UHGV virus genome: UHGV-0180032
Reading direction: 5' to 3' (one strand)
Source: a virus
DNA length: 64,000 nucleotides
Shown: in pieces, positions 4,329 to 63,189 of the stretch
Layout of the letters: each line of letters opens with the position of its first letter
Position numbering within the stretch: the stretch's first letter is position 1
Program-made: the position numbers and the translations under genes
Notes under the pieces: model-generated
What the model was told of the DNA's origin: nothing
What the model saw: the letters and a program-made list of their open reading frames with translations, nothing else
Databases searched by the model: none

Positions 4329-5180
4329 ATGATTGACATTTATACAGATTACGCCGCCGTTCTTACCGTCAATCGTTCGGAGGAACGTGCTGCACCGTTT
4401 CTGGATTTAGTCACGCTTTGCATGGACTACGGATACGACGTTGCGTTAAGTGATGTATACTGGCAACCGTCTTCTGACCCGGCAGACGAAACGGTTCGAT
4501 TAGAAGGCATTATCGTTAAGTGTGCGGTAGCGTTAGGTAACCGACTAGGGATAGCGTTAAATCCCCAGGAAGTTTACCATAAACCCAAAGAGACCGTACG
4601 TATTCTGGACGGTATTACTTCCAAGTTTGAAGAGTTCGAAGACACCGATACGCTTTACGGTATTGTGATGTCGGGCGAGACGCCGGAACACATTCTGGAA
4701 AGTATCTGTCGTTATGTTTACGGTGACGATAATATCCATTTCGAAGATCTGGTTGTTCGAGTGTCTCCTCGTGTAATGACCGTGATGAGAAACTACCTGT
4801 CTTCTGTGACCGTAGACGAACAATTAGCGGCAGGTAACGACAGACGTTTGTCTCGTATCGCTGATTACCTTCGTTTATATCCTCAAAACCCATCTGCATT
4901 CGTATTCCTTAACTTACCAGACCTGCCTGATTTGACCGTGGTTCAGCAGTCGCTGGTCTTCGATGTCGAGGACTACTCGGAAGCCGAGCTGTTGGAAATG
5001 TATGCAGTGGGCTTAACGATTATCGATAACGAGGATTACGAAGATGCGTATGGTGCGTTATCAGAGAACCTGGAGAAGCTCAACAACGAAGGGTTAAAAC
5101 CTATTCCTATCTTGCAACCTGCTCTGGAAAGCTTGAAGGAGATTTATAAGGTAGCGGAGGAAGACAATGACGAGATTTGA
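4329..5180 (+). CDS. hypothetical acidic protein (284 aa)
   Basis: ATG 4329 with AAAAGG upstream; ORF-track start at 4293 is TTG inside terminator T-run so internal ATG preferred. Confidence 0.7.
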   Translation: MIDIYTDYAAVLTVNRSEERAAPFLDLVTLCMDYGYDVALSDVYWQPSSDPADETVRLEGIIVKCAVALGNRLGIALNPQEVYHKPKETVRILDGITSKFEEFEDTDTLYGIVMSGETPEHILESICRYVYGDDNIHFEDLVVRVSPRVMTVMRNYLSSVTVDEQLAAGNDRRLSRIADYLRLYPQNPSAFVFLNLPDLPDLTVVQQSLVFDVEDYSEAELLEMYAVGLTIIDNEDYEDAYGALSENLEKLNNEGLKPIPILQPALESLKEIYKVAEEDNDEI

Positions 5181-6468
5181 GTTTCTGGTGGCGGCTTGTA
5201 AAGCCGAAGCCTGGCGTCGTTTAGTGTGGCGTATTGCAATATTCAACATGTCAGTGTTCCCGTCGAATCGTGAAGAACCCGAAGCGTACGATATTACGTA
5301 TATCGACGGAATGCCGCACTACTACGCGGTAGAAGATGGGAAAGGTGATTGGCAGCCGATTACTGATGGCGTGAAAGACCAAGAACTGTTTATTCCTGAA
5401 GAACAGTTTGAGTTGAAAGTCGATGACTACCCAGGATTAGAAGGACCGATTCCTACTACCGTAGGACGTTATATCTTTAACTGGGTTGTTATCTGGTATG
5501 CGTTCGGTACACGCTTGCCGTATATGGGCATTTCACAAAACCCATTAGAGTATCGTAAAGAGATGCACCGCCGTTGTTTGGATCACGAAACCGATGAACC
5601 TGAGAACGAAGGTGCTATTCGTCCGAGCATGATAGAACGCTTTGTAAGCGGCTTACACGAGCTTGCACCGTTAACCGCTGGTATTGCACCAACAGGTACA
5701 CTTAGAAGCCTTACAGTGCATCCTGATGCGTATAAAATACGTGATGCGTTGCTGTTAAAGCATAAGGACGAGTTAGACGACCCCGCTGTGATTGTTAAGA
5801 TAGAAAAAGCACTGGACGAACTGGATAAACAGTGGTTGTCGGGTGACCAATCTATCGAGTTCTATAACTCGCCAAAATCACGAATGCGTCGTCGTAAGTT
5901 GATGCTGATGTACGGGATTGAATCGTCTTTCCAGGAAGGGGGTAACTATACGTTAATTCCTAACGCACTGGTGGAAGTCGATAAGGCGGGAATGGATAAC
6001 CTGGTCGCGAAGTTTAACTCTATTCGTGAAGGTTCGTTCTCGCGTGGTGCGGAAACGGCGAAAGGTGGGGAACAGGTACGTATCATTCAGATGATCTTCC
6101 AGAACCACCGAATCGTTACAGGTGACTGCGGGACGAAACTCACGCACCCTGTGGTTATCACAAAAGACAACGTAAAACGTTACGTTGGGATGAACGCGAT
6201 GGTTAATGGGAAGTTAACCTCCCTGACGGAAGAGTTTTTGAATAGTCAGCTAGGGAAAGTTGTGCGCCTACGCCGACCCATCTTATGTCAATACGGCCAC
6301 ATCGACTGCTGTACTGCGTGCTCCTCCGAAGCGAAAGGTGAAGAACCTCGCGCTATCGCAGCGGATATTTCGTCAGCGTTCTCTAACGTTATGTCCGTGG
6401 CAATGGCCGCAATGCACGGTAAAGAAACCGTCGTTCACGAATACGATCCGTTGATCCATATCACCTAA
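5167..6468 (+). CDS. hypothetical protein (433 aa)
   Basis: ATG 5167 with GGAGG 6 nt upstream; overlaps upstream stop. Confidence 0.7.
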   Translation: MTRFEFLVAACKAEAWRRLVWRIAIFNMSVFPSNREEPEAYDITYIDGMPHYYAVEDGKGDWQPITDGVKDQELFIPEEQFELKVDDYPGLEGPIPTTVGRYIFNWVVIWYAFGTRLPYMGISQNPLEYRKEMHRRCLDHETDEPENEGAIRPSMIERFVSGLHELAPLTAGIAPTGTLRSLTVHPDAYKIRDALLLKHKDELDDPAVIVKIEKALDELDKQWLSGDQSIEFYNSPKSRMRRRKLMLMYGIESSFQEGGNYTLIPNALVEVDKAGMDNLVAKFNSIREGSFSRGAETAKGGEQVRIIQMIFQNHRIVTGDCGTKLTHPVVITKDNVKRYVGMNAMVNGKLTSLTEEFLNSQLGKVVRLRRPILCQYGHIDCCTACSSEAKGEEPRAIAADISSAFSNVMSVAMAAMHGKETVVHEYDPLIHIT

Positions 6469-20773: not shown

Positions 20774-21989
20774 TACTGCTACTGTAGTTCCAGACGGCAT
20801 CGAACTGCCAGCAGAATCTGTTGAAGGTACTCTGGCCGATATCGAACATGATACCAAACCGATCGAAGCCCTGGACGCTGACGCTGAACTGCTGGCCGAA
20901 GACGGCGACGAAACCGATGCTCAGCTGGATGTCCTGGACGAAGCTCAGGCCGCTGCTGACGGTGAAGGTGCCGGTGAAGACGGCGAAGAGCCGATGGACG
21001 CTGAAGAAGATATGCCGGACGACGCAGCGACTGCGCTGGACGTTGCTCAGGAATCTATCCGTTCTCGTTGGAACTTCGAACACCGTTCTTCCGTTGCACA
21101 CGAATCCTACGGTTCTCGTAACCGTCGCCAGGTTGCTCGTGAATCCCTGTGGGAAGACATTAAAGCATTCCTGAAACGTATCTGGGAATGGCTGAAAGAA
21201 CAAGGCCGTAAGATCAAAGATCGTTGGCTGAAATTCTCCAACCAGGGTAAATCCATCCAGGCTCGTTCTAAGAAATACGACGAAGCTATTCGTAAACTGG
21301 GCAAACAGAAGAAAGATGAAATCTCTGGTGGCTTCATCAAGTCTCTGTCTATCGACGGTAAATTCGTTGGTGACGATCTGCCGCGCCTGAAGAATATCCT
21401 GAACCACGTTTCCACCTACTACAGTGGTAACGTTCAGAGCTTCCTGAACAACGGTACGGATATGGTTGGTAGCGTCGTTAAAGGCGATGGCGCTAAAGTT
21501 GAGAAACTGAAAGCAGACTTCGCTGCTCTGGCTAAAGAAGACGTTAGCAAGTTCAAACTTGGTAACATGGCGCTGAAGATGGAGTACGACGAAGAAGGCG
21601 GATTTAGCTCCAGCTATGTGGAAGCTGAAAACCGTGCTGAAACCAACGTGAAAACTCCGTCTGTTAGCGAACTGGCTAAGACCAATGCCTTCTTCAACGA
21701 AGTGGGTAAACAGATCGAGAAGAACGTTCTGGAATATCGTAAGACTGAACAGGCTCGCGAGAAATTCAGCCAGCAGATTGAGAAGCTGCTGAAAGAAATC
21801 GACAGCGTGAAGATCGACGAAAAACCGCAACTGACCGAATCTGTACGTACCGCACGTCGTTACATCAACAGCATTAACCAGGCAGTATCTCTGGGCGAGA
21901 AAGTTATTTCCTCTACTCAGAAACATCTGGCTGGCGGTCTGAACGGCTATATCTCCGCAGGTATCGCTGCTTACGAAAAATCTAAATAA
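20727..21989 (+). CDS. acidic virion-type protein, paralog 2 (420 aa)
   Basis: Paralogous to 19379..20650; optimal codons; strong terminator follows. Confidence 0.8.
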   Translation: MANFAKTRAARESMEATATVVPDGIELPAESVEGTLADIEHDTKPIEALDADAELLAEDGDETDAQLDVLDEAQAAADGEGAGEDGEEPMDAEEDMPDDAATALDVAQESIRSRWNFEHRSSVAHESYGSRNRRQVARESLWEDIKAFLKRIWEWLKEQGRKIKDRWLKFSNQGKSIQARSKKYDEAIRKLGKQKKDEISGGFIKSLSIDGKFVGDDLPRLKNILNHVSTYYSGNVQSFLNNGTDMVGSVVKGDGAKVEKLKADFAALAKEDVSKFKLGNMALKMEYDEEGGFSSSYVEAENRAETNVKTPSVSELAKTNAFFNEVGKQIEKNVLEYRKTEQAREKFSQQIEKLLKEIDSVKIDEKPQLTESVRTARRYINSINQAVSLGEKVISSTQKHLAGGLNGYISAGIAAYEKSK

Positions 21990-22007
21990 TCTCTGATTGT
22001 TTAGTAA

Positions 22008-22054
22008 GAGAACCACCCTGTAATGGGGTGGTTCTCCCTTTTCTTTTTTTTTTC
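22008..22054 (+). terminator. rho-independent terminator
   Basis: stem gagaaccaccc/ggggtggttctc followed by an ~18-nt T-run. Confidence 0.75.
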
Positions 22055-22071
22055 GCATTAAAAATAATCTT

Positions 22072-22107
22072 AGATATATATTACCTTAGTGAGATTACGC
22101 TGTAATC
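22072..22107 (+). promoter_or_regulatory. phage promoter motif (AGATATATATTACCTTAGTGAG) plus dyad gattac-N5-gtaatc
   Basis: One of five copies of the motif; contains TATATTAC; sits ~40 nt upstream of ATG 22145. Confidence 0.45.
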
Positions 22108-22144
22108 TTTTAACGACCTGTTTATTACGTTTAGGAGAATTATC

Positions 22145-22786
22145 ATGACACGTTACAATTTAGCTGACTTCTGCGATTGTGCCTTTTCTGTTGAAGGTGA
22201 CAAACTTGTAATGGCTGCGCCAAACGCAAGAGTCTTATCGTTGTATCAAGCCGAAGTTATTGCAATTTCGATTTGGTTAGCAAGGGCTATAGACGGCGGC
22301 TGTAAGGACCTTGATAAAGAAGTGTTGAAAGTCGGTCGTCGTGAATTTGTGTATAAAGCAGAAATCCAGAGCCGTTTACCGCAGACCTTTTTAAGCAACT
22401 TGCTTAAAGATGTCAACACCCCAGTTGTCAGCCGAACATTTGACGGGGTGAAATACTACTCTTTTGAAGATTCGCACATTGCTATCTGTGAAGGCGAGAA
22501 TAAGTTTTTTACGACCGTTATCTACTTTCGTATTGCCGAACCTACGAAAGAAGAACTGGTTTGCAACACTGCGAACGATGTGGCCGTGATGCGTATGGAC
22601 GATATCACCAGTGCACTATCTGGATTAAATGACATACCGCGTATTGTGGAGCGAGTCTTGGAAGGAGACGATTACTTTAAGCTGCTTCCGCTGGTAGCAA
22701 GCGAAGAAACAGAACAGGAAAGCGCTTTCATTCAGGTTAACCTTACCGCTGCGCAGGCGGTAGATCGTTTCTTCGAAGCTTTATAA
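22145..22786 (+). CDS. hypothetical protein (213 aa)
   Basis: ATG with AGGAGAA upstream; own promoter motif and terminator. Confidence 0.7.
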   Translation: MTRYNLADFCDCAFSVEGDKLVMAAPNARVLSLYQAEVIAISIWLARAIDGGCKDLDKEVLKVGRREFVYKAEIQSRLPQTFLSNLLKDVNTPVVSRTFDGVKYYSFEDSHIAICEGENKFFTTVIYFRIAEPTKEELVCNTANDVAVMRMDDITSALSGLNDIPRIVERVLEGDDYFKLLPLVASEETEQESAFIQVNLTAAQAVDRFFEAL

Positions 22787-22793
22787 TCAGAAT

Positions 22794-22819
22794 GCCCTCT
22801 ACGGAGGGCTTTATTTTTT
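22794..22819 (+). terminator. rho-independent terminator
   Basis: stem gccctc/gagggc followed by tttatttttt. Confidence 0.6.
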
Positions 22820-22839
22820 CGACCTTTAGGAGAATAGAA

Positions 22840-23391
22840 ATGAACAAATTTAATATCTTAGACGCTAAAATCGTATCCGAGTCTTCTATTCAGCAAGAAA
22901 TCTTTCGTGTTCAGTTCGGTGAGAAAGTTTTGAATATTCCGCGCCCAGTTATGATTGGGTTAGCGATATTCGTTAACAACAGCCATTGTAACGGTTCGGC
23001 GTTGTCGGTTCTTGAGTACGGTAACTATCAGTTCTATATTCCAGAACACCTCGAGTATAACCGTTTCATCGAACTTAAACCGTTCTATAAGTTCATGCTT
23101 GATGCGGGCTACTCGATTCTAACCAAAACGTATATTCGTGACTACTCGAAGTTAGAATCTTTCTATCGTGCTCGTGGTTTCCGTGTCCCACAACCGTTTG
23201 ACGGATACCAGACCCGTGTTGTGTTAACTGCACCGTTAACGAAAGAATTGGCTTCCTACAAACTGGATATCGAGCAGAAACTGCTGCGTGACGACTTACT
23301 GAAAATCTATAACCAGTTGTCCGTGGTGCCTTCTTCAACTATCTCGAACATTGAACCGGAGTACGGAATAAGACAATACATGGAAGGTTAA
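22840..23391 (+). CDS. hypothetical protein (183 aa)
   Basis: ATG 22840 with AGGAGAA upstream. Confidence 0.65.
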   Translation: MNKFNILDAKIVSESSIQQEIFRVQFGEKVLNIPRPVMIGLAIFVNNSHCNGSALSVLEYGNYQFYIPEHLEYNRFIELKPFYKFMLDAGYSILTKTYIRDYSKLESFYRARGFRVPQPFDGYQTRVVLTAPLTKELASYKLDIEQKLLRDDLLKIYNQLSVVPSSTISNIEPEYGIRQYMEG

Positions 23392-23392
23392 G

Positions 23393-23698
23393 ATGATACC
23401 GAGAGCCGACCGAATAGACGTGATACGTTTTGAAGAGTGTGAAACCGAGTACCAGGTTAAACGTATCGAATTACGTTTAGTTATCCCTAAGCTAAACGAA
23501 CCTGAGTGGAACGGTGAGCTAATGGTACCGCTTGCCGAACCAATTAAAACGGGGACAGGCGAGATTAATTATCTCCATTTAGAGGCGGCGGGTCGAAAAG
23601 TAACCGTTTGGCATCTTGCTGACGGTTACAAAACCAGTCAGCTTACACGTAAAGCATTTATTCGTAAATTGAGAGAATCGATAGGAGTTGTGAAATGA
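23393..23698 (+). CDS. hypothetical protein (101 aa)
   Basis: ATG with AGG upstream; overlaps DHFR start. Confidence 0.6.
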   Translation: MIPRADRIDVIRFEECETEYQVKRIELRLVIPKLNEPEWNGELMVPLAEPIKTGTGEINYLHLEAAGRKVTVWHLADGYKTSQLTRKAFIRKLRESIGVVK

Positions 23699-24231
23699 CA
23701 GTTACTGTATCTTTGATTGCAGCAGCGGGACTTAATAATGAAATAGGGAAAGACAATAAACTCCCTTGGCATATTCCTGATGATCTGAAGAACTTCAAAG
23801 CACTTACGTCAGGTAAGGTCATCGTGATGGGAAGCAAGACATGGAAATCGTTAGGGTATAAACCCCTACCCAATCGCCACCATGTCGTGTTAACGAGAAG
23901 ACCTGGTGGCGTGCCCGAAATAAACGGGGTGCTTAACCTTAAGGGTGAAATGGGTTCGATTATTGAATTCCTCAAAATCGAGGTTGAGAAAAAGGGTTAT
24001 CCTAAGGAAATCTTTATTATTGGCGGTGCAGAGATTTACCAACAAGCGATGCCTTATGCAGATAAGATTTACTTGTCTCGTGTTGAGGTTAAGGTAGAGG
24101 GTGCGGATGCGTTCTTCCCTGAAATCGATCGTGATGTGTTTAAATTGACTTATAACTTAACACACTGCTCGAAACCAGAAAGTGATATTCCGCGTTGGCA
24201 TTATCAGATTTGGAAAAGAGATGGGAACTGA
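23695..24231 (+). CDS. dihydrofolate reductase
   Basis: DHFR signatures: IAAAGLNNEIGKDNKLPW, VIVMGSKTWKSL, IIGGAEIYQ; ATG with GGAG upstream. Confidence 0.8.
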   Translation: MTVTVSLIAAAGLNNEIGKDNKLPWHIPDDLKNFKALTSGKVIVMGSKTWKSLGYKPLPNRHHVVLTRRPGGVPEINGVLNLKGEMGSIIEFLKIEVEKKGYPKEIFIIGGAEIYQQAMPYADKIYLSRVEVKVEGADAFFPEIDRDVFKLTYNLTHCSKPESDIPRWHYQIWKRDGN

Positions 24232-24517
24232 GTTTGTAACTTTAGAAAAACTCTTTTTAGGCAGCGTCGCGAAAAGGAAGATAGCCAGTTTCACTTGGAG
24301 CCCCACTCCCGTAAAATACGCGTTTCTACGTCGTTTACACTACGAGAAAAGCATCAAGCTGGTCTTGGTCGTGTTGTTCGAAAACAAACGCGGATTGTTG
24401 ATTAATAATCATCGTTTTGCGGCGGAAATCTGGGCGACCACATCTGGCGGTGAAGAAGCGTCTGTTGGCTTTGATAACGATAAGGTTATCTTTGAGGGTA
24501 TACCTTATCTGTTATAG
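24221..24517 (+). CDS. hypothetical protein (98 aa)
   Basis: ATG 24221 overlapping the DHFR 3' end; ORF-track start 24182 lies inside DHFR. Confidence 0.45.
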   Translation: MGTEFVTLEKLFLGSVAKRKIASFTWSPTPVKYAFLRRLHYEKSIKLVLVVLFENKRGLLINNHRFAAEIWATTSGGEEASVGFDNDKVIFEGIPYLL

Positions 24518-24530
24518 CACAGATAAACAT

Positions 24531-24566
24531 AAAAGGGGACTTCGGTTCCCTTTTATTTTTTTTTTC
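24531..24566 (+). terminator. rho-independent terminator
   Basis: stem aaaaggg/ccctttt followed by a long T-run. Confidence 0.6.
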
Positions 24567-24607
24567 ATTTCGCGCCTGTGATATGACTATAACGAAGGAA
24601 CAAGCCA

Positions 24608-26116
24608 ATGCAACAGTATTTTGAAATTCCGTCGTTAGACGCGACCATTCGCAAACCAATAATCGATGGCGTTATACAACGTGTACTTAATGAATCAGGT
24701 ATTGATAAAGCAGCGGTTGTTTTCCTTGATGAATTCAATAGCGCACATCAGCCCGATTCCACGTTAGGCGACGGTACAGAAGTTGAGTACAGCTCGCCTG
24801 AAAAGGTGTATGTTGAAGTAGAAGAAGAACGCGATGAGTGGGCCAGAATCAATCGTCAGGTTGGTCAACAAGCCGAACCGTACTTCTTTGAAAACTCCGT
24901 CGATCAGGTGCGTGCCTGGCCCGTTAGAACGATGTATAACGTAACGGTAACGTTACGACGTACCAGTGCTTCTCGTGATGAGTTATTGCGCTGGACAAAC
25001 CGTTTAGACTCGTTAGTGGACATGGGTCGTTATTCGACGATGACCGAGTCAGAAGCGTTTTATTATATTCCGAAACCGGCACTGAAGTTATTGAACGCCT
25101 GTTATGTTGCCGCAGGGACTCGTGTACCGACGTTTGATGATTTTAAAGCCTATCTCAAGGCGTACTTTACCCCCGACGTGTTCCGCGCTGCTAACGTTGC
25201 CGGTGGACAGGAATCTATTGCGGTACGCTATGCACCTACTCGCTTAGAGACCGTATACGACGTTCAGACACCTGCCTGGGATAAAGACGAGAACCACTGG
25301 GAAGCCACATTCGTTGTGCGTTTCTCTTATCAGCGTCCTGAAGAGATTGTGGTTTCGTATCCGTATATCATCAACCAGACACCGCTTCCTGATGAATACT
25401 GGCCAGAGATAGACCCACCGTGGGTGTCTAACGAAGAACTGGTGTATCGACATCCGCAACAAAAGAATCTCGATTCAACGTGGTGGATTAACGAAACCCG
25501 TCAGTATATTCGTTTACCGTATCTGCTGTCACCGACAGAACAGTTCCACCGTACGCATTCCCCGTTAAAAGATAAACTCCTGCACGTCTTCGGCACAGAC
25601 GTTGTATTCGATGAAGACAACATGAGCTCACCGAAAGTGTTATCTGTCGAGGATTTGCCGTACGAGTGGAATCCAGATTTGTTGCCGTACATCGAACACT
25701 GTCGAGTAATAGACCCTACCGGACAGACGGGCGTCTTCCGTGTAGAGCTGTTCGAAGAAGGCCAAATCATCGAACCCCGTTTCTATCATTGGGAAGACAA
25801 TACCTTCTTTTTGAAAGGACGTGATTTAAAAGTTAACAAGAGTTACTACCTAACCGAATCGGTGATGTTCGACTGGCGAGGGATGAACCTGTGGCCACTC
25901 CAGCTTTATCCTAAAGCCGCGAAAGTGTTGATAGAATGGTTATTCCCAAAATGGGATGTACCGGACTGGTGGTGGGATAAACCCGTATTACCGCCGAGTG
26001 TTATCGACGACATTAATAAACTGATTCCTAACGTAGAAGCCCGCGTCTTGCTGACGGTGCTGAACTCGACCGTGATTACCATGCGAGGGACAGAGAATGC
26101 TCAAAGCGAAGCGTGA
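24608..26116 (+). CDS. hypothetical protein (502 aa), first gene of a five-gene operon
   Basis: ATG with AAGGAA upstream; no terminator until 30165. Confidence 0.7.
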   Translation: MQQYFEIPSLDATIRKPIIDGVIQRVLNESGIDKAAVVFLDEFNSAHQPDSTLGDGTEVEYSSPEKVYVEVEEERDEWARINRQVGQQAEPYFFENSVDQVRAWPVRTMYNVTVTLRRTSASRDELLRWTNRLDSLVDMGRYSTMTESEAFYYIPKPALKLLNACYVAAGTRVPTFDDFKAYLKAYFTPDVFRAANVAGGQESIAVRYAPTRLETVYDVQTPAWDKDENHWEATFVVRFSYQRPEEIVVSYPYIINQTPLPDEYWPEIDPPWVSNEELVYRHPQQKNLDSTWWINETRQYIRLPYLLSPTEQFHRTHSPLKDKLLHVFGTDVVFDEDNMSSPKVLSVEDLPYEWNPDLLPYIEHCRVIDPTGQTGVFRVELFEEGQIIEPRFYHWEDNTFFLKGRDLKVNKSYYLTESVMFDWRGMNLWPLQLYPKAAKVLIEWLFPKWDVPDWWWDKPVLPPSVIDDINKLIPNVEARVLLTVLNSTVITMRGTENAQSEA

Positions 26117-27467
26117 TAAGCCGTCAACTTTTGAACCTGTAGACCGGCCTATCCCCGAGTTAAACAAACCCCAGGACGGCGTAAAAGAAACCACCAATAT
26201 CGTTACGCAACCTACACGTACAACCGTTACTGACTTAGACCGTATTCCAAAGCAATACCTAATGAAGTATCTGGAAGGGTCAGCGTGGACGGTGGACTTC
26301 TTTAACTTCCTGAAAGGAAGAAACGACGCTAAGAAGTTTTTCGATTCGAAAGTGCTTACACCTGACCAACAGGTAGAGAAAATCATCGGGTTGGAACTGC
26401 GTGTAACGACACCACTCGACCGTAGCCAGGACAGCACGAACAAAACGTTCAGCATGTCCGGTGCTGCAACAATTGCAAACTCGATTATCCCTAACGAGGG
26501 ATGCTTTTTCATCGCTCCTATCGGTGATGGTCGTTTTGCGTTGTTTAACGTTACCAACGTTGTGCGTATGTCGAATAACAAAGTCGCGACGTACAACATT
26601 GAATACACCTTACTTTTCGAAGTTGACCCAGAAACCGCAGAAACGATTCGTCGTTGCACCGTACGTGAATACTACTACGTTGCAGAGCGTGCCTGGACAG
26701 GTGGCGATACACTTCTCACACCGAAAGAGTACCGTGCGTTCCTGGAAGTCGTTGACGCGATTGAAGACATTGAGCAGACGTATGTAAAACGTTTCTACGA
26801 CGGTGAAACGGCCACGTTGCTGTTCCCACACGATCGGCAGAGTGATGGTTTGCGCAGCCGTGCTTACTACGACGTGTTTTTAGCGTTGTTTGTGCGTGCA
26901 CTGGGGTTACGTACCGTAGGTAAGGATATTCAGATTTATCCGCATCCGCCGATGAACGTGGAAGACATTGAAACGGTGTGGACAGCGCTGCTGCAACAGT
27001 CACCAACGTTCTTAGCAGATTACAAACGTGACAGTACGGTGTGGCAACCGAAAACTTTCCGTACGATGCAACATCGTAACTCGGTAACGTGGTCGTTGAT
27101 CTCTGATACCCGATTCTTTACGGAAGAGTTAAAGCCAGGTTACGGGATGGCACAACGTTTCCCTGGTCAGTGGCCAGAATGGAAACCGTTTGAACCGGTT
27201 GAAGTTGAAAACTATCGTGGGAACGAAGGGGAGTCTATCCCAGCTTTCCTACCGCTGTCCTTTAAACCGTATTTGCTGAGCGAGACGTTCTACGACGGTT
27301 CTTACAGTTCGTTGTTGGAATACGGCTTGTACTTGTACCTGCATAAACGTCCGCTGCCGTCGGTAATTGCGTTAAAACTGTTTGAGGAAGTTTATAAGCT
27401 CCCGAAAGACGCACAGTTCTATTACATTCCGATGGTGTATCTGCTTTTAAGATATTCGAGGGATTAA
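26097..27467 (+). CDS. hypothetical protein (456 aa)
   Basis: ATG 26097 overlapping upstream gene by 20 nt. Confidence 0.65.
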   Translation: MLKAKRDKPSTFEPVDRPIPELNKPQDGVKETTNIVTQPTRTTVTDLDRIPKQYLMKYLEGSAWTVDFFNFLKGRNDAKKFFDSKVLTPDQQVEKIIGLELRVTTPLDRSQDSTNKTFSMSGAATIANSIIPNEGCFFIAPIGDGRFALFNVTNVVRMSNNKVATYNIEYTLLFEVDPETAETIRRCTVREYYYVAERAWTGGDTLLTPKEYRAFLEVVDAIEDIEQTYVKRFYDGETATLLFPHDRQSDGLRSRAYYDVFLALFVRALGLRTVGKDIQIYPHPPMNVEDIETVWTALLQQSPTFLADYKRDSTVWQPKTFRTMQHRNSVTWSLISDTRFFTEELKPGYGMAQRFPGQWPEWKPFEPVEVENYRGNEGESIPAFLPLSFKPYLLSETFYDGSYSSLLEYGLYLYLHKRPLPSVIALKLFEEVYKLPKDAQFYYIPMVYLLLRYSRD

Positions 27468-27468
27468 T

Positions 27469-28008
27469 GTGTCAGTGAAACGTAGTGCAGCATTTATGCT
27501 GTTCCATAAGTGGGTAGCATGGCGTGTTCCTGAATGGACGACCATTACCCAGTATATGTCGCAAGAACACGGATTGTTCTTGCCGGATGACGAAAAGAAA
27601 GCACGGGCGATTTTGTTGAACAAGAAAACGGTGTATATGCGACCATTTGAAGTGGCGGTGTATGCAGAGACCGGTGCCGCGTTAGATGTTCACGATCCGA
27701 ATGACGGTATTATCGTTTACGGGTATATCATGGAACACCTGGCAGATTGGTTACATTACATGCAAGAGCCACATCTGACGACGCGTAAAGTGCCGATAGA
27801 AGGACTCCGCCAGTTCAACGCCTTAGCGTGTAAACTCTTTCCCGTTGCTAACCGATACGGTTACTTTAAGAAACCGGAAGTGACGATGGCGACGTCGGTA
27901 CAAGCGTTATTTGGAGAGGTGCGTTTAGAAGCGCAGCAACACCGTTTTAACGATACGATAATGCGACGTATAGAAACGATTTATCGTAAAAGGGGAGGTA
28001 TACTGTAA
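27469..28008 (+). CDS. hypothetical protein (179 aa)
   Basis: GTG start immediately after upstream stop. Confidence 0.55.
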   Translation: MSVKRSAAFMLFHKWVAWRVPEWTTITQYMSQEHGLFLPDDEKKARAILLNKKTVYMRPFEVAVYAETGAALDVHDPNDGIIVYGYIMEHLADWLHYMQEPHLTTRKVPIEGLRQFNALACKLFPVANRYGYFKKPEVTMATSVQALFGEVRLEAQQHRFNDTIMRRIETIYRKRGGIL

Positions 28009-29327
28009 TGTCGTTTGGTCGGTTACAGAACATAGCAAACGTGCATATCGCACAAGCGGCGGGATTACCGGCCATCGAATACGTACCCATCATTACGGTA
28101 CGTGGCACAGTTATCAGCGTATTTAAAACGTTGTCGATAATCCATGCCAGTAACTTCGCACAGGACTTAACGACTATCACCCATCTTACCGTGATGATAC
28201 CGTTAAGCCAACAGCGTGTGTTAACGTCCTCCGCAGACGGGGATTTGTCCGTGAAAATTCTAATGCGGACAATGAACAAGAAAACCGTTGCGAAACTCGA
28301 CTATCGGGGTATCGTCGTAAACAACTACGATCCTGATATGGAATCGCCCACGATGTTCTTAGGTGAGTCTGACCAGAAAGCGTTAGCGGTCGTCACCCTG
28401 GAACTGATGGACGAGTCAATGTGGTTCTTACGTTGCCGTCAAGTCGGTGGGATTTATCACGAGACAGACGGTCTTAGTGTTGTTCGTGCACTGCTGGCAG
28501 ATACGTTACCTACCGGTGATGCGCCAGAAGGTCAGTTGGTGGGCGTGGAATACGAGGAAGAGGAGCAACAACCGTATCGGGATATTTTGATTCCTGACTC
28601 GGAAAGTTTCCTGTCCGTGTTCGATTACCTTCAGAACCGTTACGGGGTTTATAGCCAAGGGCTGGGGGTGTTCCTTTACAAACACCGTTGGTATATTTTC
28701 CAACCTTGGGACTCTAAGAAGTTTTCATCAGCGAAGAATAAGCTGGTGATTATAAACCTACCGAAAGAGAAAGCGGCGTATCTGAATAAGACCTGTCACA
28801 TTGACGGTGACGTGATTTACCTGATATGTGGGGGTGATGTCCACACCTTCGAAGATAAAGACTCCTTAGCACTAAACCAAGGTACCGGTTATCGTGTGGG
28901 GTCTATCCGTGCGTTGGATGGTCGTGCATCCTCGTTCTCGTCGGGTGACGTTTCTGCTACAACGTCTGATTCGTTCGTGTCAGCGGCTGACCCGACGCAA
29001 TATCCGGGTGGGGTAGTTAACGCACCAATTGACCCGAACCAACACTTCTCAGACACAGATAAACCGCAACGGTCTAAGTTAGCGGCGGCGAAAGGAACGC
29101 TAACCGCAACAACTTGGAACGCATCAACGTATGGCTTACTCCGTCCGGGGATGGCAGTAAAATACATTTATGCGAATAACTATGGTGTATACACGCGTTA
29201 CGGAACATTAGTTGCAGAAGTTTTCCAAGGTGCAATTGATGGCGGTTCAGCGGCTTCACCACGGTTTAATACCATTAGTCAGTTGACGTTGTGGCTGACT
29301 AATGAAAATTTTACATCCACAACGTAA
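28008..29327 (+). CDS. hypothetical protein (439 aa)
   Basis: ATG overlapping upstream stop (TAATG). Confidence 0.7.
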   Translation: MSFGRLQNIANVHIAQAAGLPAIEYVPIITVRGTVISVFKTLSIIHASNFAQDLTTITHLTVMIPLSQQRVLTSSADGDLSVKILMRTMNKKTVAKLDYRGIVVNNYDPDMESPTMFLGESDQKALAVVTLELMDESMWFLRCRQVGGIYHETDGLSVVRALLADTLPTGDAPEGQLVGVEYEEEEQQPYRDILIPDSESFLSVFDYLQNRYGVYSQGLGVFLYKHRWYIFQPWDSKKFSSAKNKLVIINLPKEKAAYLNKTCHIDGDVIYLICGGDVHTFEDKDSLALNQGTGYRVGSIRALDGRASSFSSGDVSATTSDSFVSAADPTQYPGGVVNAPIDPNQHFSDTDKPQRSKLAAAKGTLTATTWNASTYGLLRPGMAVKYIYANNYGVYTRYGTLVAEVFQGAIDGGSAASPRFNTISQLTLWLTNENFTSTT

Positions 29328-29359
29328 GTTATGTCGACAGCCACCTAAAGGATTTGTTA

Positions 29360-30160
29360 ATGAGCAATTTACTTACTTTCCGCATGTCTGGTCAAACGTT
29401 AATGCAGATTGACGAGTACGAAAAAGAACATTTCGCTAAACCGTCTAAACTGTTGGAACGTTGCTTAAAGGTTATTCCAGGCGGCGAGCATTGTCAGCTA
29501 GATTTCGTTATGGCGTCTTCTGCTGACAAAACGGTCTCTGTTATCTACACGGTTGACGGAGTACAGGGCCATCGCTTATTACCGATTGAAGAAAAAGGTT
29601 CTTTGGGTAATTTGTTGTTCTTGCACGCAATCACGACAGCGGTAGTGACGGGTGCACTGGAAGCACAGTACGGTTTCGCGTATTGCTACTTCTACGCACA
29701 GAAGCTGGCGAATGCGGTAGTTCCAGGGGAACCAGAAACGTATCCGAAGTATATCGAACGTTTGCTTCCGACACACTTTGCTGAGTCTGACGACTATGAG
29801 TTCAATGCTTTCCGTTTCACGATGATTGGCGAAGCGCGCGATCCTGAAAACACCATTGCGCTACGTGCTGTTGTTCGTTACGCGGTAATTTCGTCTGACA
29901 GCGGAATGGCAAGCAACTTCAACGAAGTGTTCCCGGTTATGCAACTCGGTCCGTATATCACGTTTAACGCGTACGTACCGTTTACTTGTCAGTTAATCGG
30001 CCCGCAGGATAACGATTCTATCCTCCCGATTACTGAAGAGAAAGGTCTGCATATTCGTGACGCCGTAGAAGTCATCAACGATAAACGTTTTACGATCTCA
30101 TCGAAAAGCGGCATTGCTGATGAAGAACTTGCGGTCGTGAACAAAATGCAAGTGATGTAA
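29360..30160 (+). CDS. hypothetical protein (266 aa)
   Basis: ATG 29360 with AAAGGA upstream; terminator follows. Confidence 0.7.
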   Translation: MSNLLTFRMSGQTLMQIDEYEKEHFAKPSKLLERCLKVIPGGEHCQLDFVMASSADKTVSVIYTVDGVQGHRLLPIEEKGSLGNLLFLHAITTAVVTGALEAQYGFAYCYFYAQKLANAVVPGEPETYPKYIERLLPTHFAESDDYEFNAFRFTMIGEARDPENTIALRAVVRYAVISSDSGMASNFNEVFPVMQLGPYITFNAYVPFTCQLIGPQDNDSILPITEEKGLHIRDAVEVINDKRFTISSKSGIADEELAVVNKMQVM

Positions 30161-30164
30161 AATT

Positions 30165-30203
30165 ATCCCGTTACCTTTGTGGGTAACGGGATGTCCTTTT
30201 ATT
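30165..30203 (+). terminator. rho-independent terminator
   Basis: 11-bp stem atcccgttacc/ggtaacgggat followed by a T-rich tail. Confidence 0.6.
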
Positions 30204-30327
30204 TACTCGTAAATGCGTCTTAGACGCTGTTTTACACCTTAAGACGATTAATGGTGTTTAAAAAATAAAAGGTCGTCAGAATGCGATACAGCGCGTTTTA
30301 GAGGGTGATTTAATTAAAATATTTTCA

Positions 30328-30366
30328 GATATATATTACCTAGGTGAGAGAATTACGTAATACTCA
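30328..30366 (+). promoter_or_regulatory. phage promoter motif (AGATATATATTACCTAGGTGAG) plus palindrome ATTACGTAAT
   Basis: Second copy of motif; 10-bp perfect palindrome 30352-30361; ~30 nt upstream of ATG 30397. Confidence 0.45.
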
Positions 30367-30396
30367 TTTATCGAATACCTAATTAGGAGCTATATC

Positions 30397-30540
30397 ATGA
30401 TTTCTGTAAAACACAAAAAAGCTATCTTCGCTGTTGTTATCGCTGTTGTTCTGGGTTGCCTGTACCTGGATATCGATAAAGGCTACGACACTTGCATCGA
30501 CAACGGTAATTCCGTTGCACAGTGCACTGGTCGTGGTTAA
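30397..30540 (+). CDS. small putative lipoprotein (47 aa)
   Basis: SD AGGAG upstream; signal-like MISVKHKKAIFAVVIAVVLG followed by Cys (lipobox-like VLGC); own promoter motif and terminator; below ORF-track size cutoff. Confidence 0.5.
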   Translation: MISVKHKKAIFAVVIAVVLGCLYLDIDKGYDTCIDNGNSVAQCTGRG

Positions 30541-30547
30541 TGTATAA

Positions 30548-30577
30548 GGCACCTTCGGGTGCCCTTAATTTTTTATC
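30548..30577 (+). terminator. rho-independent terminator
   Basis: stem ggcacc/ggtgcc with ttcg loop, then cttaattttttatc. Confidence 0.65.
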
Positions 30578-30594
30578 TATTGGAGTATTTTTAA

Positions 30595-31410
30595 ATGAAA
30601 ACCATCAAAGACTATTTTCCGACCGGCATCAGTAGCGACCATTTCGTACCAGCGGATTCGATGGAAATTATCAGTAAGTCCGGTAGCGGTGAGTTTGTTA
30701 TTTACCTAACTAATGTAGGAGGTAGACCGAGTTTCATTCTCCTCGAGCCTAAAGAAGTAAGTGTCTGTACGGTTGCTGTAAATGTTTCTTGCGGCCTTAG
30801 CTGGTTGAAGTCCAGGCTGTTACGCTTGCTCGTGGTTAATACTGACCCAGTAGTACGCTTAGAGCGATTAAAAGCAATGAATGAGGTTATCCTAGGTTTT
30901 CTGCTACATCCTATTTACGGTAACCCTAAAGTCGCAGAAGCAATACAAAACGTACAGTTAGCAGAGTGGAGTGATATTGACTACGAGCGTGCCTCTGAAT
31001 TTGTATTACAGGCAGACGACAACACCGGTGTGTTCTCACAAACGTTGGATAACGTAACGGTAACCGCACGTGTGTTGTTTGGTCTGCAACGCGTAGAGTT
31101 TGAATTGAAACACGTCTACGTGAGCAATAAGCCAGAGATGGTGGAGACGTTGATTCGTGCGTTCGCTTATCCGTTAGACGGCGAATGGGAACAGCAGATT
31201 AATGAAGCGTTAGGAGCCATGCATTTCCTGGCTGAAACGTTAAGGAAGGATGAGAAATTGAAAGGTCGTGTTTATCCAGAACACGATTTTGTTTGTGAAG
31301 AATGTGGAGCACAGTATCAAATCCGTGTTCCTTTAACCGGCCTAACATTCCCGCAAGCCAACGTGCAATGTAAGGAATGTGGTCATGTTCAATACGTAGC
31401 GATTAAATAA
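30595..31410 (+). CDS. hypothetical protein (271 aa) with C-terminal zinc-ribbon-like CEECG...CKECG
   Basis: ATG with GGAG upstream; terminator follows. Confidence 0.7.
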   Translation: MKTIKDYFPTGISSDHFVPADSMEIISKSGSGEFVIYLTNVGGRPSFILLEPKEVSVCTVAVNVSCGLSWLKSRLLRLLVVNTDPVVRLERLKAMNEVILGFLLHPIYGNPKVAEAIQNVQLAEWSDIDYERASEFVLQADDNTGVFSQTLDNVTVTARVLFGLQRVEFELKHVYVSNKPEMVETLIRAFAYPLDGEWEQQINEALGAMHFLAETLRKDEKLKGRVYPEHDFVCEECGAQYQIRVPLTGLTFPQANVQCKECGHVQYVAIK

Positions 31411-31415
31411 AAGCA

Positions 31416-31460
31416 ACCCCTAATCCCGAAAAGGATTAGGGGTACACTTTATTTATTTTC
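31416..31460 (+). terminator. rho-independent terminator
   Basis: stem acccctaatcc/ggattaggggt followed by a T-rich tail. Confidence 0.65.
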
Positions 31461-31486
31461 GCAATTTCAACATAGGAGAAAAGTTC

Positions 31487-31645
31487 ATGAAACATGAACA
31501 GTTGTTTCAAAGGTTAAACGAGTTGTCCGTAAAACAGCTCGAATTTCAACGAAGGGTTAGTGAAATAGCGCAACCAACGTTAACTCAGCCCAAAGTTGCT
31601 TACCCAAGAAACACCCAGTTGATAGTTGAAAGGAGAAGTAACTGA
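31487..31645 (+). CDS. small protein, tandem paralog 1 of 3 (52 aa, ends ERRSN)
   Basis: ATG with AGGAGAA 6 nt upstream; paralogous to the next two small genes; G-rich hairpin follows; below ORF-track size cutoff. Confidence 0.45.
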   Translation: MKHEQLFQRLNELSVKQLEFQRRVSEIAQPTLTQPKVAYPRNTQLIVERRSN

Positions 31646-31649
31646 TAAA
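31628..31649 (+). repeat. 22-nt repeat gaaaggagaagtaactgataaa, identical to 31950..31971
   Basis: Exact identity at the 3' ends of two otherwise diverged paralogs. Confidence 0.9.
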
Positions 31650-31799
31650 AAAACAAGGGGGTGCTGTCACACCCCTTATCATAGCTTTATCTTTTCGAAA
31701 GAGAAGATAAAGCAGTAGGGACTGCGCCAACAGTCCTTACTTGTCATCGCTATTACTAAACGTGATAGCACAATTCTAATTTGTTAGAGGCGATCAGAA

Positions 31800-31967
31800 A
31801 TGTTCGACAGTATTACGCAAATTTTTAATACTACCGTAAACAATCACGCTCAGCAAGCGAGGTTTAATGAACGACTAAGAGAAGTTCAACAATTAGGATT
31901 AAATAAAAGATTAAATTCTTCCAATAATCCTCGAGTACAGATCTTCACCGAAAGGAGAAGTAACTGA
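31800..31967 (+). CDS. small protein, tandem paralog 2 of 3 (55 aa, ends ERRSN)
   Basis: ATG with GAGG upstream; shares Q.FN...RFN.R...LGL pattern with paralog 3; hairpin follows. Confidence 0.45.
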   Translation: MFDSITQIFNTTVNNHAQQARFNERLREVQQLGLNKRLNSSNNPRVQIFTERRSN

Positions 31968-31971
31968 TAAA
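31950..31971 (+). repeat. 22-nt repeat, identical to 31628..31649
   Basis: Exact identity read directly. Confidence 0.9.
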
Positions 31972-32065
31972 CACAAGGTTCGCTGTTGTAGCAGCGAACC
32001 TTTTACAACACCATTACGTTTCCGTAATGGATTTCTTTAATCACCCTACAAAGAGGGCTTATGCC

Positions 32066-32137
32066 ATGAACGATACGGTGCCAACGCATAAAGACGTTGG
32101 CGTTTCTTACAACGTTACTAAAGGTAATGAAAAATGA
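32066..32137 (+). CDS. candidate 23-codon leader ORF translationally coupled to paralog 3
   Basis: ATG with AGAGGG upstream; stop TGA 32135-32137 overlaps ATG 32134-32136 of next gene; begins with the same ATGAACGAT as that gene. Confidence 0.3.
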   Translation: MNDTVPTHKDVGVSYNVTKGNEK

Positions 32138-32304
32138 ACGATTATCAATTACAGATGTTTAATGCGGCGATGCGTAACCGTGAAAAACAAATTCAGTTCA
32201 ACCAACGCATGGATGAATATGTTCGTCTCGGTCTTGTTGCGGCACCTAAAACATCTAATAACCAGAATATACAGCAACCCTATGTAAGGAGAACTGGCTA
32301 CTAA
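32134..32304 (+). CDS. small protein, tandem paralog 3 of 3 (56 aa, ends VRRTGY)
   Basis: ATGA-coupled to upstream leader ORF; AGG-AGA pair near stop as in paralogs 1 and 2; G-rich hairpin 32316-32337 follows. Confidence 0.45.
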   Translation: MNDYQLQMFNAAMRNREKQIQFNQRMDEYVRLGLVAAPKTSNNQNIQQPYVRRTGY

Positions 32305-32442
32305 TTAACTAATACAGGGGGTGCACTACCACCCCCTACTTAGTTCAGTAGTTGTCTTTCGTTCATAATTATTAGGTGACTTGTTTTTTTTTGCTTTTCG
32401 GGACGCATAAGGGGTCGTAGGGGGAGCCGAAGCTCCCCAGAC

Positions 32443-34005: not shown

Positions 34006-34018
34006 GGAGCATCCTTAA

Positions 34019-34543
34019 ATGCAAATTCGTTTTAGTCCACCGTGGGAAGTTCAGCCTAACATAGATAAAGGCGCTGCCGTTAAAAGTGTAGAATTGCTCC
34101 AGGCAGGGTTCTTTAACTGGTTATATGACTGTCCGAATGGTTTCAGTTCTATCATTATACCTGAAGTAAGTCGTTCTGCTATTTATAAAGCGTTAATGGC
34201 TCCGCCTGTGCTTCCAGGTAAATATTATGATCAGGTGTTACGTCTGGTCGAATCAGGCGAAAAGGTTTCCCTTGACGATTTATATGGGGAAACAATTCCT
34301 TGTCGCTTACGCTGGGTCTTTACCCAACGTGGTGATACGATTGTGGCGTCATTTGCAGAAGCGAAGTCCGGTTCGGGTTTTTCTTCGGGTGAAGACCACG
34401 CTGCGAAAAAGATGTTCTGCGCAGAACTTTTTAAATATATGCGTACCAAGACTCGCGTCGTGGATGACTGCTTCAGTACCTCAACGCAGTTTGCCGCTAA
34501 CGAAGTGCTGACGCAATTATACGCATGTCATTTATCTCATTAA
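34019..34543 (+). CDS. hypothetical protein (174 aa)
   Basis: ATG 13 nt from the divergent minus-strand start; immediately upstream of capsid-like gene. Confidence 0.7.
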   Translation: MQIRFSPPWEVQPNIDKGAAVKSVELLQAGFFNWLYDCPNGFSSIIIPEVSRSAIYKALMAPPVLPGKYYDQVLRLVESGEKVSLDDLYGETIPCRLRWVFTQRGDTIVASFAEAKSGSGFSSGEDHAAKKMFCAELFKYMRTKTRVVDDCFSTSTQFAANEVLTQLYACHLSH

Positions 34544-34555
34544 GGTATTAAACAA

Positions 34556-36841: not shown

Positions 36842-36856
36842 TACCGAATAAAAAGT

Positions 36857-36897
36857 GTCTAAGCCCTTCGGGGCTTAGACCTTTTATTTTTTTCTTT
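36857..36897 (+). terminator. rho-independent terminator
   Basis: stem gtctaagccc/gggcttagac with ttcg loop, then a 17-nt T-rich run. Confidence 0.8.
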
Positions 36898-36910
36898 CTA
36901 TTATTTTTTG

Positions 36911-36940
36911 GATAGATATTATCAAAGGGAGACTGTCAGT
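36911..36940 (+). promoter_or_regulatory. degenerate copy of phage promoter motif (GATAGATATTATC)
   Basis: Resembles the AGATAGATATTACC copy at 57829; start of a low-GC island. Confidence 0.3.
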
Positions 36941-36958
36941 TGGTTTAAAGGAGACTTT

Positions 36959-37009
36959 ATGGAAAAAATACATTTAAGACTAAAGATATGTACCATTATT
37001 AAAACTTAA
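36959..37009 (+). CDS. candidate 16-codon upstream ORF (MEKIHLRLKICTIIKT)
   Basis: SD AAAGGAG 5 nt upstream; rich in rare codons ATA, AGA, CTA; ends 12 nt before ATG 37022, which lacks its own SD. Confidence 0.3.
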   Translation: MEKIHLRLKICTIIKT

Positions 37010-37021
37010 TCTGGCCCCTAC

Positions 37022-57790: not shown

Positions 57791-57826
57791 CCCCTACCTT
57801 CGGGTAGGGGGTTATTTAATTTTTTC
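57791..57826 (+). terminator. rho-independent terminator
   Basis: stem cccctacc/ggtagggg with ttcg loop, then a T-rich tail. Confidence 0.7.
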
Positions 57827-57828
57827 TC

Positions 57829-57866: not shown

Positions 57867-57901
57867 TTTACGACTTGTTCTACAGATTAGGATTAATTAT
57901 C

Positions 57902-58261
57902 ATGGCTTACAATCACAACTCTATTGTTTTAGCAAAACGTAAATTCGGTCTTCATCTTTCTTACGTGATTCGTCATTTGACAGCGAAAGACATTACACAG
58001 CGTGAACTTGCTCAGCTTGCAAAAGTTTCACAACCGGTTATTTCATCCATTAAGAACGATCATAGCGAACGTCCGAGTCTACCAATAATGATGAAGGTTG
58101 CTGATGCAATTCGTCTGAAATATCAGATTACGTTTAATTCCGTTAAAGGACGTTGCTCAGTAACGGTTCACGTAGAGTCTGCGTTGGACTACGTTGCAAA
58201 TACGTCCCTTAAACGTACCGCGAAGAATATTCGTTTTGTTACTAACAGCGCAACACATTAA
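57902..58261 (+). CDS. XRE-family helix-turn-helix DNA-binding protein
   Basis: ITQRELAQLAKVSQPVISSIKNDHSERPSLPIMMKVADAI matches the HTH_XRE pattern; ATG 57902. Confidence 0.65.
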   Translation: MAYNHNSIVLAKRKFGLHLSYVIRHLTAKDITQRELAQLAKVSQPVISSIKNDHSERPSLPIMMKVADAIRLKYQITFNSVKGRCSVTVHVESALDYVANTSLKRTAKNIRFVTNSATH

Positions 58262-62818: not shown

Positions 62819-62864
62819 TTTCGATATAACTTCAGCATTGTGTTGTTAACGGTCTAAAAAATTT

Positions 62865-62896
62865 AAGATATATTTCATCTATGTGAGAATTCTCAC
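62865..62896 (+). promoter_or_regulatory. phage promoter motif variant (AGATATATTTCATCTATGTGAG) plus 14-bp perfect palindrome GTGAGAATTCTCAC
   Basis: Fifth copy of motif; palindrome 62883-62896; ~25 nt upstream of ATG 62920. Confidence 0.4.
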
Positions 62897-62919: not shown

Positions 62920-63189
62920 ATGGCTAAGATTTACATTGTTGAAAAACGTTCAGGTAATGTTCTTTCTTATCACGAAGAAGGTAAACCCGAAAAAGTTAAA
63001 ACGCTCAAGCTTGAAGGTTTTGATGTGAAAAGCCTGCGTAAAGGCGTGAAGATTACTTTCAAAGGTTTGATTCGTGCAGGTAACTTACACATCATCAAAA
63101 CAGATGGAACGATGGTTGCGTTAGCACCGGCCACCGCTGCGAAAACGACAGCCGGTCGTGGTTGCTACGGCAGCAGTCGTAAGTTTTAA
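62920..63189 (+). CDS. hypothetical small basic protein (89 aa)
   Basis: ATG with AATGGAG upstream; terminator follows. Confidence 0.55.
   Translation: MAKIYIVEKRSGNVLSYHEEGKPEKVKTLKLEGFDVKSLRKGVKITFKGLIRAGNLHIIKTDGTMVALAPATAAKTTAGRGCYGSSRKF

Follow-up and report, generated by a model that had tools for sequence, protein, structure and literature searches.

A phiKZ-type early promoter of an SPN3US-like jumbo phage and a probable stem-loop at the 5' end of its transcripts

A stretch of 64,000 nucleotides from the virus genome UHGV-0180032 (the window, throughout) contains five copies of a promoter-like motif, four of them joined to a short dyad-symmetric element. They raise the question of which polymerase reads the motif, and of whether the dyad works as a structure in RNA, as a structure in DNA or as a binding site for a protein. 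By comparing the window with related phages we arrived at a reading that we hold to be probable as a whole: the motif is an early promoter, its mRNA carries a stem-loop at the 5' terminus, and the stem-loop probably stabilises the message.

The motif and its counterparts in other jumbo phages

The motif is laid out as an A/T tract, the core AGATATATATTAC, four variable nucleotides and GTG, and its full form can be written (A/T tract)TTTC-AGATATATATTAC-CTAG-GTG-AG. The 13-nt cores of the five copies start at 22072 (c1), 30327 (c2), 36910 (c3), 57829 (c4) and 62866 (c5). All five lie on the + strand in intergenic sequence, 31-54 nt 5' of a start codon with a Shine-Dalgarno sequence. A preliminary description had listed these five copies from the window alone, and every one of them is present; its coordinates were exact for c1 and c4 and off by one for the others (30328, 36911 and 62865). 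A search with AGATATATATTACCT that allowed up to 3 mismatches gave 5 matches against 1.14 expected, one of which (10079) is a chance match, and c3 was missed. The pattern GATAKATWTYAYCNNNGKGAGA, designed after the sites were known, matched exactly c1-c5, with 0.00 matches expected from 100 shuffles. No sixth copy was found in the window by a position-weight-matrix scan, in which the next best site lay more than 30 bits lower, and window counterparts sought for the SPN3US sites 92540 and 72684 were not convincing. A weak motif-like sequence, TTTAATACCTTAATGAGAT at 34557 (- strand), runs antisense to the gp192-like and major head genes, both on the + strand, in the 12 nt that separate them; it scores far under c1-c5 and is probably a chance match.

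The copies and their dyads are as follows.

22058..22091, + strand: promoter c1, with A/T tract AAAAATAATCTT, core AGATATATATTAC (22072-22084), spacer CTTAGT and predicted transcription start (+1) at G22091
22091..22109, + strand: c1 hairpin GAGAUUAC-GCU-GUAAUCUU, beginning at the predicted +1 (-5.5 kcal/mol, z -3.0)
30313..30346, + strand: promoter c2, with core AGATATATATTAC (30327-30339), spacer CTAGGT and predicted +1 at G30346
30346..30365, + strand: c2 dyad GAGAGAAUUACGUAAUACUC, a weak bulged RNA hairpin (-1.5 kcal/mol, z -0.5) that includes the perfect DNA palindrome ATTACGTAAT (30352-30361)
36896..36929, + strand: promoter-like c3 of a hairpin-less subclass, with GGATAGATATTAT (36910-36922), spacer CAAAGG and predicted +1 at G36929
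57815..57848, + strand: promoter c4, with core AGATAGATATTAC (57829-57841), spacer CTTAGT and predicted +1 at G57848
57848..57866, + strand: c4 hairpin GAGAUUAC-GCU-GUAAUCUC, beginning at the predicted +1 (-8.2 kcal/mol, z -4.3)
62852..62885, + strand: degenerate promoter-like c5, with AGATATATTTCAT (62866-62878), spacer CTATGT and predicted +1 at G62885
62883..62896, + strand: c5 palindrome GTGAGAATTCTCAC, which starts 2 nt 5' of the predicted +1

Two copies are degenerate: c3 reads ATTATC for ATTACC and GGGAG for GTGAG, and c5 has 3 mismatches within the 13-nt core. The AT-rich element itself is TATATTAC in c1 and c2, GATATTAC in c4, TATTTCAT in c5 and GATATTAT in c3, the last being the T form seen in AR9 and OBP. 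A G stands 6 nt past the core in all five copies, within GTG in four of them and within GGG in c3.

Published consensus sequences of early promoters, predicted or mapped, are TATATTAC for phiKZ, ..TATATTACDWHDGTG for 201phi2-1 (in a longer form ..TTTRARR.BTATATTACDWHDGTG) and ..TTTCARRYAKATATTATYWAAGTG(WA) for OBP/N1M2 (PMC7058600, Table 2). The AR9 early promoter is AAATATATATTAT-(6N)-G+1, and starts in phiKZ and phiR1-37 likewise fall 6 nt past the element (PMC5312081). Against the promoters of phiKZ, 201phi2-1, OBP/N1M2 and AR9 the window motif can be aligned base for base, and it is thus very probably the form that the early promoter of phiKZ-family virion RNA polymerases takes in the SPN3US clade, in line with the preliminary description. 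It has the AT-rich element of about 10 nt with TATATTAC/TATATTAT near -10 that characterises the phiKZ family, and its intergenic copies are oriented with the genes, over-represented (5 against 0 expected) and placed before small genes of unknown function or, once, before a gene for a helix-turn-helix (HTH) protein. According to a 2020 review, all jumbo phages with RNA polymerases of their own have an early motif that bioinformatic means can detect; wherever transcripts have been profiled, that motif is the early promoter, presumably read by the virion polymerase (PMC7598289).

Shared with the promoters of phiKZ, 201phi2-1, OBP, N1M2, phiR1-37 and AR9 are the AT-rich core TATATTAC/T, the G at -2, the G 6 nt downstream, the A/T-rich upstream tract, and the occurrence of many copies per genome before small genes of unknown function, often after terminators. 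The SPN3US clade differs from that family in its longer conserved block, AGATAKATATTAC...GTGAG. With exact-pattern scans of IMG/VR we recovered the same motif in SPN3US (240,413 bp), phiEaH2 (243,050 bp) and Caitlin (241,147 bp), and in many metagenomic jumbo contigs of 220-246 kb.

The phage itself has the expected setting. The window belongs to a jumbo phage of the SPN3US/phiEaH2/Asesino type, with about 74% nucleotide identity across structural and replication genes by megablast, and among its products are a fragment of the beta-like subunit of a multisubunit RNA polymerase, a major head protein of jumbo type, a helicase resembling DnaB, and polymerases. Syntenic regions of SPN3US and phiEaH2 carry the matching RNA polymerase subunit annotation, and the split beta/beta' genes that are a hallmark of phiKZ-type phages are found here also. 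Whether it is part of the virion or the non-virion enzyme, the beta-like fragment is, to judge by its homology, a sign of phiKZ-type transcription machinery in this phage.

Transcription starts were placed by the 6-nt rule known from AR9, phiKZ and phiR1-37, together with the 201phi2-1 consensus. The +1 predicted in this way is the last G of GTG, at the positions listed above, and it fits the position -2 reported as conserved in 201phi2-1.

Folding and covariation of the dyad

We assembled the complete SPN3US genome and gathered motif instances from about 260 loci. SPN3US has about 20 motif sites genome-wide, which fall into two sequence subclasses. Seven sites of the form '...ATTACYT..GTGAG' (4427, 56294, 65413, 94239, 113986, 165687 and 223277) are all followed by a hairpin, and each precedes hypothetical genes or the HTH gene gp165. 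By contrast, about twelve AGATAGATATTATCT sites (7390, 15614, 23810, 25226, 28969, 72486, 72684, 92540, 109893, 161919, 191602 and 238181), to which 36910 in the window also belongs, have no consistent hairpin. This second subclass has T for C at core position 13, is partly palindromic, and stands before other genes, among them those for RNA polymerase subunits and the one that follows the major head gene. The two subclasses may differ in timing or strength. A dyad after each copy, as the preliminary description had it, was found for four of the five; c3, which corresponds in position to SPN3US 72486, the site following the major head gene, has none (folding z = +0.6).

The minimum free energy of the region +1..+30 was then compared, for non-redundant promoter-like sites, with that of each site's own shuffles:

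...ATTAC subclass, n=42: mean -5.43 kcal/mol, shuffles -2.05, p=3.4e-9
...ATTAT subclass (AGATAGATATTATCT), n=17: mean -3.72 kcal/mol, shuffles -2.86, p=0.75
chance motif matches in unrelated contigs, n=134: mean -2.41 kcal/mol, shuffles -1.88, p=0.055

The next 30 nt of the ATTAC-subclass leaders fold to only -1.53 kcal/mol. Loops of the family hairpins are 3-9 nt long. Among 40 non-redundant sites the best stem begins at the predicted +1 in 16, more often than at any other single position; in the rest it begins between -9 and +6. In c1 and c4 the first base of the stem GAGAUUAC/GUAAUCUY is exactly the predicted +1. The TATATTAC sites of phiKZ, 24 of them in 180 of 280 kb and about 20 of these looking like early promoters, showed no hairpin enrichment (-2.05 against -1.63 kcal/mol, p=0.53). 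Individual phiKZ sites do carry one: the promoter before gp054, the nuclear shell protein (NC_004629, 45568), has a long +1 hairpin, GAAUCUAGUAUACUAAGUACUUAGGUUC, of -8.8 kcal/mol, and sites 266882 and 23585 have +1 hairpins likewise, most phiKZ early promoters being without. A search of the whole window against Rfam 15 gave 0 matches at gathering score.

The arms of these hairpins vary widely, with 28 distinct 5' arms among 32 hairpins. Alignment of 26 unaligned leaders with MAFFT followed by RNAalifold did not return a structure, since loops of different length shift the arms out of register, and an arm-swap test and a register-matched subset were used in its place. When arms were exchanged between hairpins, the mean stability fell from -6.41 to -2.42 kcal/mol, and 7% of the chimeras were as stable as the native partner. 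Among 17 sites in the same register, 93.4% of cells were paired, compared with 74.2% in column shuffles (0/500) and 42-51% with slid partners; two properties of the sample take weight from this support for a conserved hairpin, as the subset was picked on predicted structure, which inflates the paired percentage, and as the sites are phylogenetically related, so that the shuffle statistics overstate independence. The informative part of the test is the covariation relative to the shuffled and slid controls, and changes on both sides were seen at 6 of the 8 stem pairs.

The same drift is visible at orthologous promoters. The stem before the HTH gene is GAGATTAC/GTAATCTC in the window, GAGAGTTA-CAAT-TAACTCTT in a relative with 91.6% identity in the HTH protein, and GAGAGTT/AACTCTC before SPN3US gp165. 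These comparisons show, at the level of sequence, that selection maintains the pairing of the dyad rather than its letters. The preliminary description had already proposed conserved symmetry with drifting sequence; its support within the window is thin, c1 and c4 having one stem in common, and becomes strong once relatives are added.

Genes and terminators around the copies

The surroundings of the five copies comprise the following features.

5167..6468, + strand: gene for the multisubunit RNA polymerase beta-like subunit fragment (phrog_2962 'RNA polymerase beta subunit', E=8.6e-170)
22008..22036, + strand: intrinsic terminator directly 5' of c1, from the terminator scan (13-bp stem, 7 G-C pairs, T-run)
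22145..22786, + strand: first gene after c1, 213 amino acids, no family match (54-nt leader, AGGAG at 22133-22137)
30397..30540, + strand: first gene after c2, 47 amino acids (phrog_8574; lipobox-like VVLGC; kept behind orthologous promoters in relatives)
36857..36880, + strand: intrinsic terminator after the major head gene and directly 5' of c3, also flagged on the - strand
57791..57810, + strand: terminator-like GC-rich hairpin CCCCTACC-TTCG-GGTAGGGG, then T-rich, directly 5' of c4, read from the sequence
57902..58261, + strand: first gene after c4, a Cro/C1-type HTH protein of 119 amino acids (HTH_3, E=4.7e-7; phrog_7126; counterpart of SPN3US gp165)
62920..63189, + strand: first gene after c5, 89 amino acids, unknown function (phrog_12339; 44% identical to SPN3US gp154)

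Copies c1, c3 and c4 thus lie directly 3' of strong GC-rich terminators. The promoter-leader cassettes of c1 and c4 (22058-22147 and 57815-57904) are 74% identical from core to ATG, with leaders of equal length (54 nt) in which TTTACGACYTGTT follows the hairpin and ATTATCATG stands at the start codon, and they precede the unrelated genes for the 213-amino-acid protein and the HTH protein. As the identity runs through the whole leader, it suggests duplication or gene conversion of a regulatory cassette.

Behind c2, the 47-amino-acid protein has a signal-peptide and lipobox-like N-terminus (..AVVLGC..), and the protein is 100% conserved in close relatives. Its SPN3US counterpart, gp200, is located behind an orthologous early promoter, and further matches occur in the loci of several relatives; these features suggest a small, conserved lipoprotein of the immediate-early class. 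Right after c3 there is a micro-ORF (open reading frame) of 16 codons with a good Shine-Dalgarno sequence, AAGGAG (36959-37009), and the matching place in SPN3US, the gap at 72405-72738, holds an unannotated ATG with a Shine-Dalgarno sequence. The c5 palindrome GTGAGAATTCTCAC resembles a deletion derivative of a longer hairpin, GTGAGAGTTCAGCTACTCTCAC, which belongs to another promoter of the same genome outside the window, on its 151.6-kb IMG/VR contig, and both precede an identical CTTAAC. In SPN3US the motif 5' of gp154 is degenerate and of the hairpin-less AGATAGATGTTAT type. Away from the copies, three tandem paralogous small ORFs of 52-56 amino acids (31487-31645, 31800-31967 and 32134-32304), two of them ending ..ERRSN, have hairpins between and after them that are terminator-flagged or terminator-like, several scoring on both strands; no early-promoter motif stands upstream of any of the three.

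Competing explanations and a proposed mechanism

Could the copies be host sigma-70 promoters, as for the early genes of T4-like phages, followed by unrelated palindromes? The core TATATT matches TATAAT at 5 of 6 positions, and the upstream A/T-rich tract resembles an UP element. A consensus scan of 21900-37100, however, found no -35 hexamer at proper spacing (16-18 bp from the -10 hexamer) for c1, c2 or c3, and promoter-like sites in that region numbered 18 against a shuffle expectation of 23. A 13-nt block followed by GTGAG and kept across phages of different hosts is not sigma-70 architecture either, and transcription of phiKZ-type phages is documented to be independent of the host polymerase (PMC7598289 and a 2026 review); we give this explanation hardly any credence. 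It is also very improbable that the dyad serves as a promoter-proximal attenuator or pause, that is, a weak terminator with conditional read-through or a source of short RNAs. In several SPN3US-type copies the sequence does close with ...AATCTTTTA, in which 3-4 U follow the hairpin. Yet T makes up 0.36 of the 6 nt behind the stem and 0.31 of the sequence further along the same leaders, at least 3 consecutive T occur at only 6 of 32 sites, and the stems are AU-rich (36% G-C, mean -6.4 kcal/mol), while genuine terminators in the vicinity have stems of 10-13 bp, of which 6-7 pairs are G-C. With no enrichment of U-tracts and none of the dyads flagged by the terminator scan, a terminator or attenuator identity was rejected.

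An operator, at which a dimeric phage regulator such as the HTH protein behind c4 would shut off early promoters, had been raised in the preliminary description as the alternative to an RNA stem-loop. The location over +1 is typical of repressor sites, a Cro/C1-type HTH gene directly follows c4, c1 and c4 share the identical 19-bp palindrome GAGATTAC-GCT-GTAATCTC/T, and two relatives again have equal c1-type and c4-type stems in which the centre alone differs. But the identity of c1 and c4 extends over the whole leader, as in a duplicated or converted cassette, and the stem at the HTH gene's own promoter differs in the 91.6%-identical relative and in SPN3US, which leaves the operator unsupported as a general explanation. 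Across the family, arm sequence and spacing (3-9 nt) are too variable for the operator of one protein, as no single dimeric binder would tolerate them. We regard an operator as quite unlikely overall; the HTH protein may bind at the identical c1 and c4 palindromes alone. A stem-loop is favoured over a single operator by stems that differ between promoters, orthologous ones included, covarying arms, variable loops and the commonest stem start at +1.

The dyad might instead act as DNA, as a hairpin or cruciform extruded in the supercoiled injected genome that forms part of polymerase recognition or aids melting or escape, much as in phage N4, where an injected virion polymerase likewise uses an early promoter with a short inverted repeat. 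The N4 hairpin is a recognition element upstream of the start, with conserved bases in stem and loop, and the N4 enzyme is a single-subunit T7-like polymerase, unrelated to the multisubunit enzymes considered here. Short AT-rich stems would extrude easily. Several further observations that speak for DNA weigh at the same time against an RNA stem-loop. Convincing folds from +1 are confined, within the window, to c1 and c4. As DNA, c2 and c5 form perfect palindromes that have no loop, and as RNA they form weak hairpins; the c5 stem takes in positions -2 and -1 (-2.1 kcal/mol from +1, and -5.9, z -2.3, for a transcript begun 2 nt further 5'). The dyad reaches 5' of the predicted +1 in several relatives too, and no significant difference separates the folding of the sense strand from that of the antisense strand (p=0.11). 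The +1 in the SPN3US clade itself rests on homology, and the ONT-cappable-seq starts of 201phi2-1 are resolved to within 2 nt. On the other hand, the dyad lies 3' of the conserved core, not inside it, and its start varies; the stems tolerate bulges and their starts cluster at +1, and G-T exceeds A-C juxtapositions in stems by 4:0 and 8:2, counts that come from overlapping and related sites and are suggestive only. Neither phiKZ, with experimentally mapped starts, nor the hairpin-less SPN3US subclass shows enrichment. What is conserved here, in difference from N4, is a linear AT-rich block, with the dyad at or after +1 and dispensable in sister promoters. An N4-type hairpin promoter was thus rejected, given the dyad's position, its varying sequence and loop, and the sister promoters without it; for a DNA structure in general we see little probability. 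A conserved hairpin of the sense strand or RNA, at or near +1, is the likely form of the element.

We propose that a virion-packaged multisubunit RNA polymerase, injected with the DNA, would read the motif and transcribe immediate-early units of small accessory genes, as homology indicates. It would initiate at the G 6 nt past the core, the last G of GTG; if it does so, as we infer, the first ~20 nt of the early mRNAs would be the terminal stem-loop. The dyad would then lie outside the recognition site of the polymerase and encode, at the extreme 5' end of the message, a stem-loop of about 7 bp, AU-rich, of around -6 kcal/mol and with a 3-9 nt loop. The likeliest of the roles considered is that such a structure would protect the 5' end and so prolong early messages made from a single genome copy. 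In enterobacteria such as E. coli, a paired 5' terminus hinders RppH and 5'-end-dependent RNase E, and stabilising 5'-terminal stem-loops are known from the E. coli ompA leader and the phage T7 phi10 leader. Those leaders share with the present one, if its start lies where predicted, a short hairpin with few or no unpaired 5' nucleotides, a single-stranded leader with a Shine-Dalgarno sequence after it, and a dependence on structure over sequence; here, by contrast, the hairpin is tied to one promoter class of a phage-encoded polymerase, and the 5' end is a predicted one. A stabilising function, suggested by analogy, is tentative when taken by itself, and the lack of a general hairpin at phiKZ and AGATAGATATTATCT promoters, which makes the hairpin dispensable for this kind of promoter, counts against the proposal. 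Easier promoter escape by a sigma-less polymerase may be an alternative or added role.

There is also a slim chance that the +1 stem-loop is a clade-wide cis tag on immediate-early mRNAs that the injected polymerase transcribes in the early-infection vesicle, and so does more than stabilise them in a general way. Recognition of the tag by some factor of phage or host would serve export, hand-over to ribosomes or escape from RNA-targeting defences, and the ...ATTAC promoters and the hairpin-less AGATAGATATTATCT subclass would be distinct regulatory classes of early genes. The exit of mRNA from this vesicle is listed as an open question in a 2026 review.

The kind of promoter is known, and it was to be expected here, early motifs being predicted for every jumbo phage with its own RNA polymerases. 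What appears to be new, from the sequence comparison, is the lineage-specific +1 hairpin and the split into two subclasses. Neither is described in the studies of AR9, phiKZ (differential RNA sequencing), 201phi2-1, phiR1-37 and N1M2 or in two reviews, although other published logos may show the dyad, and a literature search on SPN3US transcriptomics and on 5' hairpins of jumbo-phage early transcripts returned nothing relevant. The comparison therefore adds that the SPN3US/Erwinia clade has two subclasses, ...ATTACYT and AGATAGATATTATCT, the first coupled to a covarying +1 hairpin, unlike the promoters of the reference phage phiKZ, which are not so coupled as a class. The promoter and leader offer a ready-made cassette for engineering SPN3US-type phages, and immediate-early accessory genes, candidates for host take-over or anti-defence, can be picked from sequence in uncultured jumbo phage contigs. 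If the 5'-terminal RNA structure is true, it would provide a testable handle on how a phage with a single genome copy and no new proteins protects or routes its first messages.

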